Origin: Escherichia coli
GTDB taxonomy: Bacteria; Pseudomonadota; Gammaproteobacteria; Enterobacterales; Enterobacteriaceae
Assembly: GCF_003018255.1 (NCBI RefSeq)
Contig: NZ_CP027440.1
Strand: one strand, 5' to 3'
DNA: 64,000 bases
Positions 4,737 to 4,759 of this stretch are shown here, one piece after another. A program made the translations under genes and the position numbers. The notes beneath the pieces were generated by a model. The model worked only from the letters and a program-made list of their open reading frames with translations, was not told the origin of the DNA and did no database searches. Every line of letters starts with the position of its first letter. The stretch's first letter is position 1.

Positions 4737-4759
4737 AATAAGGATGTTGTAACTAAAGT
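4737..4759 (+). other. TerB: replication terminus site TerB (Tus binding site) in the tus promoter region
   Basis: AATAAGGATGTTGTAACTAAAGT: contains Ter core GTTGTAAC and flanks, 11 bp upstream of tus ATG; differs at no more than one position from TerB as I recall it. Confidence 0.85.

Follow-up and report, generated by a model that had tools for sequence, protein, structure and literature searches.

The DNA analysed here, a 64,000-nucleotide stretch of an Escherichia coli chromosome that we refer to as the window, carries the gene order ydgC (-), rstA, rstB, TerB, tus, fumC (-), fumA (-), which is the same in MG1655 and in the type strain ATCC 11775. The entire window is collinear with MG1655 1,679.5-1,743.8 kb at ~98% identity, and the initial annotation's placement of it in the terminus region of the chromosome therefore holds. 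A search of the 64-kb window for dif returned no match within 3 mismatches. The features of the rstB-tus interval and the two genes that border it are collected in Table 1.

Table 1. Features at and around the tus-proximal Ter site, in window coordinates.
Feature	Coordinates	Strand	Sequence	Basis or remark
rstB	3393-4694	+		ORF; annotated in the syntenic loci of MG1655 and ATCC 11775
Putative -35 of tus promoter	4709-4714	+	TGGTCA	4/6 to TTGACA, 17 bp upstream of the -10; by eye
Putative extended -10 of tus promoter	4729-4737	+	TGcTATAAA	Last base is Ter position 1; by eye
TerB, 23-bp Tus-binding replication terminator, G7 allele	4737-4759	+	AATAAGGATGTTGTAACTAAAGT
Ter position 6	4742			G/C base pair; the minus-strand C is the lock base that flips into the Tus pocket
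Ter position 7	4743			Polymorphic: G in the window, T in K-12
12-bp Ter core, A8-A19	4744-4755	+	ATGTTGTAACTA	Strictly conserved; exact match
Spacer from TerB to tus ATG	4760-4769	+	GGTTAATATT	10 nt
tus, DNA replication terminus site-binding protein	4770-5699	+		309 aa; Pfam PF05472 (Ter protein), E 1.4e-136

Beyond this locus, several other features of the window are worth recording. Over its first 25,000 nucleotides the best match reaches 99.2% across 25 kb, only 4 of 5,426 complete E. coli genomes attain 99%, and the source strain has no close representative in that collection. A 96-bp tandem repeat (28911-29335, + strand; 4.4 copies, 89% matches) lies in a gene collinear with MG1655 rsxC, and the megablast alignment to MG1655 breaks there into overlapping, offset matches, which suggests that the copy number differs between the two. 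Approximately 150 bp found in MG1655 between ydgA and uidC (1,691,398-1,691,552) are absent from the window at about 11880-11910. The only Rfam family in the window at gathering score is the enterobacterial sRNA STnc550 (RF02081, 388 bits), a full-length match at 57691-58081 on the minus strand.

The initial annotation had identified the 23-mer upstream of tus as TerB, and comparison with the catalogued Ter sites and their orientations bears this out. In the MG1655 genome sequence TerB reads AATAAGTATGTTGTAACTAAAGT. The window site agrees with it at 22 of 23 bases, G6 and the whole A8-A19 core among them, and lies in the same rstB-tus spacer, on the same + strand and at the same distance from tus. 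The single mismatch falls at the non-core position 7. Identity to the remaining MG1655 Ter sites compared is lower (TerA 21/23, TerC 18/23, TerG 16/23), making TerB the closest of the four. As the initial annotation had also stated, the Ter core GTTGTAAC is present in the 23-mer. Between the last Ter base and the ATG at 4770 there are 10 bases, and the wider Ter consensus GNRNGTTGTAACNA is matched exactly at 4742-4755. In the field, Ter sites are recognized by the locking C6 together with the conserved 12-bp core A8-A19 (PMC8707476, Methods 4.12), the position-6 cytosine being the base that acts in the Tus lock (PMC4499146, PMC8707476); the window site has both the G/C pair at position 6 and an exact core. 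Its position in the 5' region of tus, less than 50 bp from the start codon, also makes it a tus-proximal site. These alignments support the reading that the window site is orthologous to E. coli TerB both in position and in sequence. The locus nevertheless differs from its K-12 counterpart (MG1655 1,684,226-1,684,248; rstB-tus intergenic) not only in having G rather than T at position 7, but also at four further upstream intergenic positions and at four residues of Tus.

Scanning the 64-kb window showed that AATAAGGATGTTGTAACTAAAGT is the sole match within 3 mismatches of K-12 TerB, and none of 100 dinucleotide-preserving shuffles contained such a 23-mer. Two core-like matches on the minus strand, at 21033-21046 (GAACGTTGTAACCT) and 50463-50476 (GGAGGTTGCAACCA), were considered as further Ter sites and rejected, as each has one mismatch that breaks the A8-A19 core. 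One-mismatch matches of this kind are at chance level, with 27 of 100 shuffles reaching 3 matches.

The open reading frame downstream of the site is an intact tus gene, and its start agrees with the RefSeq annotation of ATCC 11775. Its product matches crystallised E. coli Tus (1ECR, 2I05, 2I06, 2EWJ) with an E value of 1e-206 and is identical to PDB 1ECR/2I06 at 305 of 309 residues, the substitutions relative to K-12 being I23A, V58I, L105F and T136S. Residues I79, F140, H144, G149 and R198 are unchanged relative to the K-12 structure, and the first four of these are what we take to be the cytosine pocket of the lock structure. Judged from its sequence, then, the gene next to the site encodes a cognate Tus whose cytosine pocket is intact. 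The T136S substitution has been noted in the phylogroup B2 strain S88, where it was judged unlikely to affect binding (Goodall et al., PMC8347550).

The K-12 tus promoter contains TerB, through which tus is autoregulated (PMC8347550, PMC8707476, PMC12809603). The window has promoter-like hexamers in the corresponding place (Table 1), and when ten E. coli alleles were aligned the putative -10 was invariant and the putative -35 invariant or nearly so, while neighbouring bases vary. Similar hexamers recur in Citrobacter and Salmonella, offset by one base in most Citrobacter, and their shared register is limited to these two genera and Escherichia. A 5/6 match to TATAAT is found near Ter in most species, which in a region this rich in A/T counts as weak evidence. 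A sigma-70 consensus promoter scan of 4300-5900 reported no site, since TATAAA lacks the T that the scan requires at the sixth hexamer position. Overlap of TerB with the tus promoter is thus a reading supported by the literature and by conservation. With this promoter, tus transcription would start around Ter positions 7-9 and, as the last base of the putative -10 is Ter position 1, Tus and RNA polymerase would compete for the same DNA. We found no intrinsic-terminator-like structure between the rstB stop codon and TerB (4695-4736), so that transcription reading through from rstAB would meet a Tus-TerB complex on its non-permissive side.

Taking one genome per species, we scanned for the A8-A20 core followed within 5-25 nt by a start of the form M-x-R-Y-D and identified 86 tus-proximal Ter sites across Enterobacterales species genomes. 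The downstream open reading frames are 47-98% identical to the window Tus (82 of the 86, those with an ORF longer than 100 aa, were aligned), and the Ter sites lie 6-22 nt, mostly 7-9, from the tus ATG. All 86 sites have G6, a base left free by the search pattern. At position 7, 79 of these sites have T, 4 have C and 3 have G; the three genomes with G7 are all Escherichia (E. whittamii, Escherichia sp. E1V33 and one labelled E. coli), and T7 is found in E. albertii and one further Escherichia sp. The window site therefore shares with the tus-proximal 'Ter1' of Enterobacterales (Toft et al. 2021, PMC8707476) its G6, its core and its location upstream of tus, but differs from the great majority of these sites at position 7. 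In this sampling T7 prevails outside E. coli, and G7 looks like a variant restricted to Escherichia.

The polarity of the site can be read from published work on replisome pausing. The T7-replisome pauses at A4/A5 when it approaches Ter from the non-permissive side and at A23/G22 when it approaches from the permissive side (PMC4499146), and the non-permissive face is thus the position-1 end of Ter. In the window this end points towards rstB, and forks moving from left to right (clockwise in MG1655) would accordingly be arrested. In MG1655 the + strand carries TerB, TerC and TerG and the - strand carries TerA, in agreement with the two opposed Ter clusters that have been described (PMC8707476). 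The GC skew of the + strand takes negative values in 12 of the 15 8-kb windows, and its cumulative curve falls, a weak and locally noisy signal that is consistent with replication usually proceeding from right to left, through the permissive face of TerB. The site is thus oriented so as to be non-permissive to a fork coming from the rstB side and permissive to the usual fork.

Taken with K-12 biochemistry, this arrangement leads us to infer Tus binding, fork arrest and autorepression at the window site. Monomeric Tus would bind the 23-mer, and a fork travelling from rstB to tus would bring its helicase to the AATAAG end first, so that unwinding would free the bottom-strand C6. The freed cytosine would dock in the Tus cytosine pocket (I79, F140, H144, G149), locking the complex and stopping the fork, and forks arriving from the tus side would displace Tus and pass. 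Bound Tus would also occlude RNA polymerase at the likely -10/start region and so repress tus. This is the textbook TerB/tus arrangement, already known, and its difference from K-12 is a common natural polymorphism. As a whole, the explanation of the site as a non-K-12 E. coli TerB that serves both as a Tus-locked fork barrier and in tus repression, with a G7 that is close to neutral, is in our view very probably correct.

The two roles may not be of equal weight, and Toft et al. argue that TerB is chiefly an operator and only a back-up barrier behind TerC (PMC8707476). On this reading TerB mainly sets the level of Tus through autorepression and is rarely engaged by forks. In its favour, MG1655 TerC lies upstream of TerB in the same orientation, ~75 kb earlier on the clockwise fork path, where it would stop most forks and leave TerB seldom reached, and a Ter site beside tus is conserved in the 86 Enterobacterales species genomes. 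However, fork pausing at TerB has been reported in K-12 (Duggin and Bell, as cited in PMC8707476); no ectopic TerB facing the non-permissive way could be obtained, which the authors ascribe to efficient fork arrest (PMC8707476); and species whose fork trap is narrow and has two sites use the tus-proximal Ter as one of the pair of working barriers (PMC8707476). The invariance of G6, which the lock requires, in 86 of 86 sites likewise argues for selection on arrest. We consider a predominantly regulatory TerB rather unlikely, and in any case as a difference of emphasis from a barrier that also represses tus, not as an exclusive alternative to it.

Regarding position 7, the initial annotation had given TerB a T there and had left two explanations for the G in the window, a strain polymorphism or an error in the expected T. 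The T was correct, as both the MG1655 genome and the 23-mer printed in three papers have it. Since K-12 TerB does have T7, the G in the window is a real strain difference; of the two explanations the polymorphism stands, G being a common natural allele. Aligning the TerB alleles of ten E. coli loci revealed several natural forms, which we designate by their first seven bases: AATAAGT (K-12, G3/10 and O103:H2), AATAAGG (the window, ATCC 11775 and strain 98194), ATTAAGG (O157:H7 and strain 789), GTTAAGA (strain A17) and a form with a one-base insertion (ECSC054). Variation among them comprises T, G or A at position 7, A or T at position 2, the 1-nt insertion and a flanking SNP (GGTTAAT to GATTAAT), while the Ter core from position 8 onward does not vary.

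To count these alleles we used 33-mer megablast queries, which are allele-specific through a 28-base word requirement; 67-mer and 58-mer queries are confounded by neighbouring SNPs and did not enter the counts. The base for the counts is the 5,391 of 5,426 complete E. coli genomes in which the TerB region was found. One plasmid-labelled record in the genome collection contains the tus/TerB 67-mer. The window allele AATAAGG, with an identical 23-mer at the TerB locus, is present in 1,372 complete genomes (797 exact matches and 575 with one mismatch outside the 23-mer, such as the flank SNP of strain 98194), the K-12 allele AATAAGT in 2,346 and ATTAAGG in 1,262, leaving about 410 genomes by subtraction with other or unassigned alleles. 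At least 2,634 of the ~5,391 genomes therefore have G7 vs 2,346 with T7, figures that are counts of sequenced genomes and not population frequencies, and only about 44% of the complete genomes contain the exact K-12 23-mer. The same Tus accession, WP_001295399.1, is annotated beside T7, G7 and A7 alleles, so variation at position 7 does not need a compensating change in the protein. In a literature search we found no occurrence of the exact G7 23-mer; the K-12 23-mer occurs in 3 papers.

Several lines of evidence bear on whether G7 matters for function. Position 7 sits between position 6 and the A8-A19 core and thus belongs to neither of the two elements by which Ter sites are recognized. Read from the genome, MG1655 TerC (ATATAGGATGTTGTAACTAATAT; 1,609,157-1,609,179) and TerG (GTCAAGGATGTTGTAACTAACCA; 2,377,356-2,377,378) both have G7 and lie on the + strand, as the window site does, and positions 5-20 of the window site match TerC base for base. 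TerC and TerG differ from the window site in lying at other loci, away from tus and outside a promoter, and in their bases at positions 1-4 and 21-23. Both are among the six high-affinity sites and are bound by Tus in ChIP-seq, TerC is described as the main termination site, with a lock that is stable, and the TerC/TerG cluster is said to arrest clockwise forks (all PMC8707476). According to Goodall et al., the chief Tus contacts are in the inner core and the outer bases add little (PMC8347550). The G7 allele should thus offer Tus essentially the contact surface of TerC, and should bind and lock. Because G7 also occurs in the high-affinity TerC and TerG and lies outside the core, we expect it to be functionally near-neutral.

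The opposing possibility is that G7 measurably alters Tus affinity, lock kinetics, or the strength or start site of the tus promoter. Position 7 adjoins the locking C6 and lies ~6 nt past the putative -10, near where transcription would be expected to start. The strong preference for T7 across species (79 of 86) indicates that the position is not free, leaving room for a quantitative effect, and G7 at tus-proximal Ter is restricted to Escherichia. Against this, the K-12 TerC and TerG that carry G7 are lock-forming and of high affinity, an identical Tus coexists with T7, G7 and A7 alleles, about half of the complete E. coli genomes have G7, and the position is outside the strictly conserved core that defines Ter. 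We therefore regard a measurable effect as improbable, and near-neutrality of G7 remains our expectation.

The view that the site is a chance or decayed Ter-like sequence without function is vanishingly improbable and effectively refuted by the conservation data: nothing specific speaks for it beyond the chance-level core-like matches at 21033 and 50463, and against it stand the absence of a comparable 23-mer from all 100 shuffles, the orthologous position with unchanged spacing to an intact tus gene, and a core that is constant across the ten E. coli alleles while its flanks vary.

Outside the Enterobacterales, the RTP-Ter system of Bacillus subtilis is not known to be homologous to Tus-Ter and arrests forks by a different mechanism. 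It is similar in that polar fork barriers flank the terminus and a site lies near the gene for the terminator protein (PMC13220808).

For this strain, TerB anchors the window in the E. coli terminus region and shows where one arm of the replication fork trap lies. If G7 did alter function, the Tus set-point or the efficiency of the barrier in lineages that carry it would depart from that of K-12; we think it quite improbable that G7 tunes the kinetics of the Tus lock, or the set-point of Tus autoregulation, in about half of E. coli lineages relative to K-12. The K-12 TerB used in essentially all Tus-Ter biochemistry is just one of several natural alleles, and G7 is at least as frequent as the K-12 form among sequenced E. 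coli, with T7 common elsewhere in Enterobacterales. This allelic variation should be taken into account when Ter probes or genome scans are designed around the exact K-12 23-mer.
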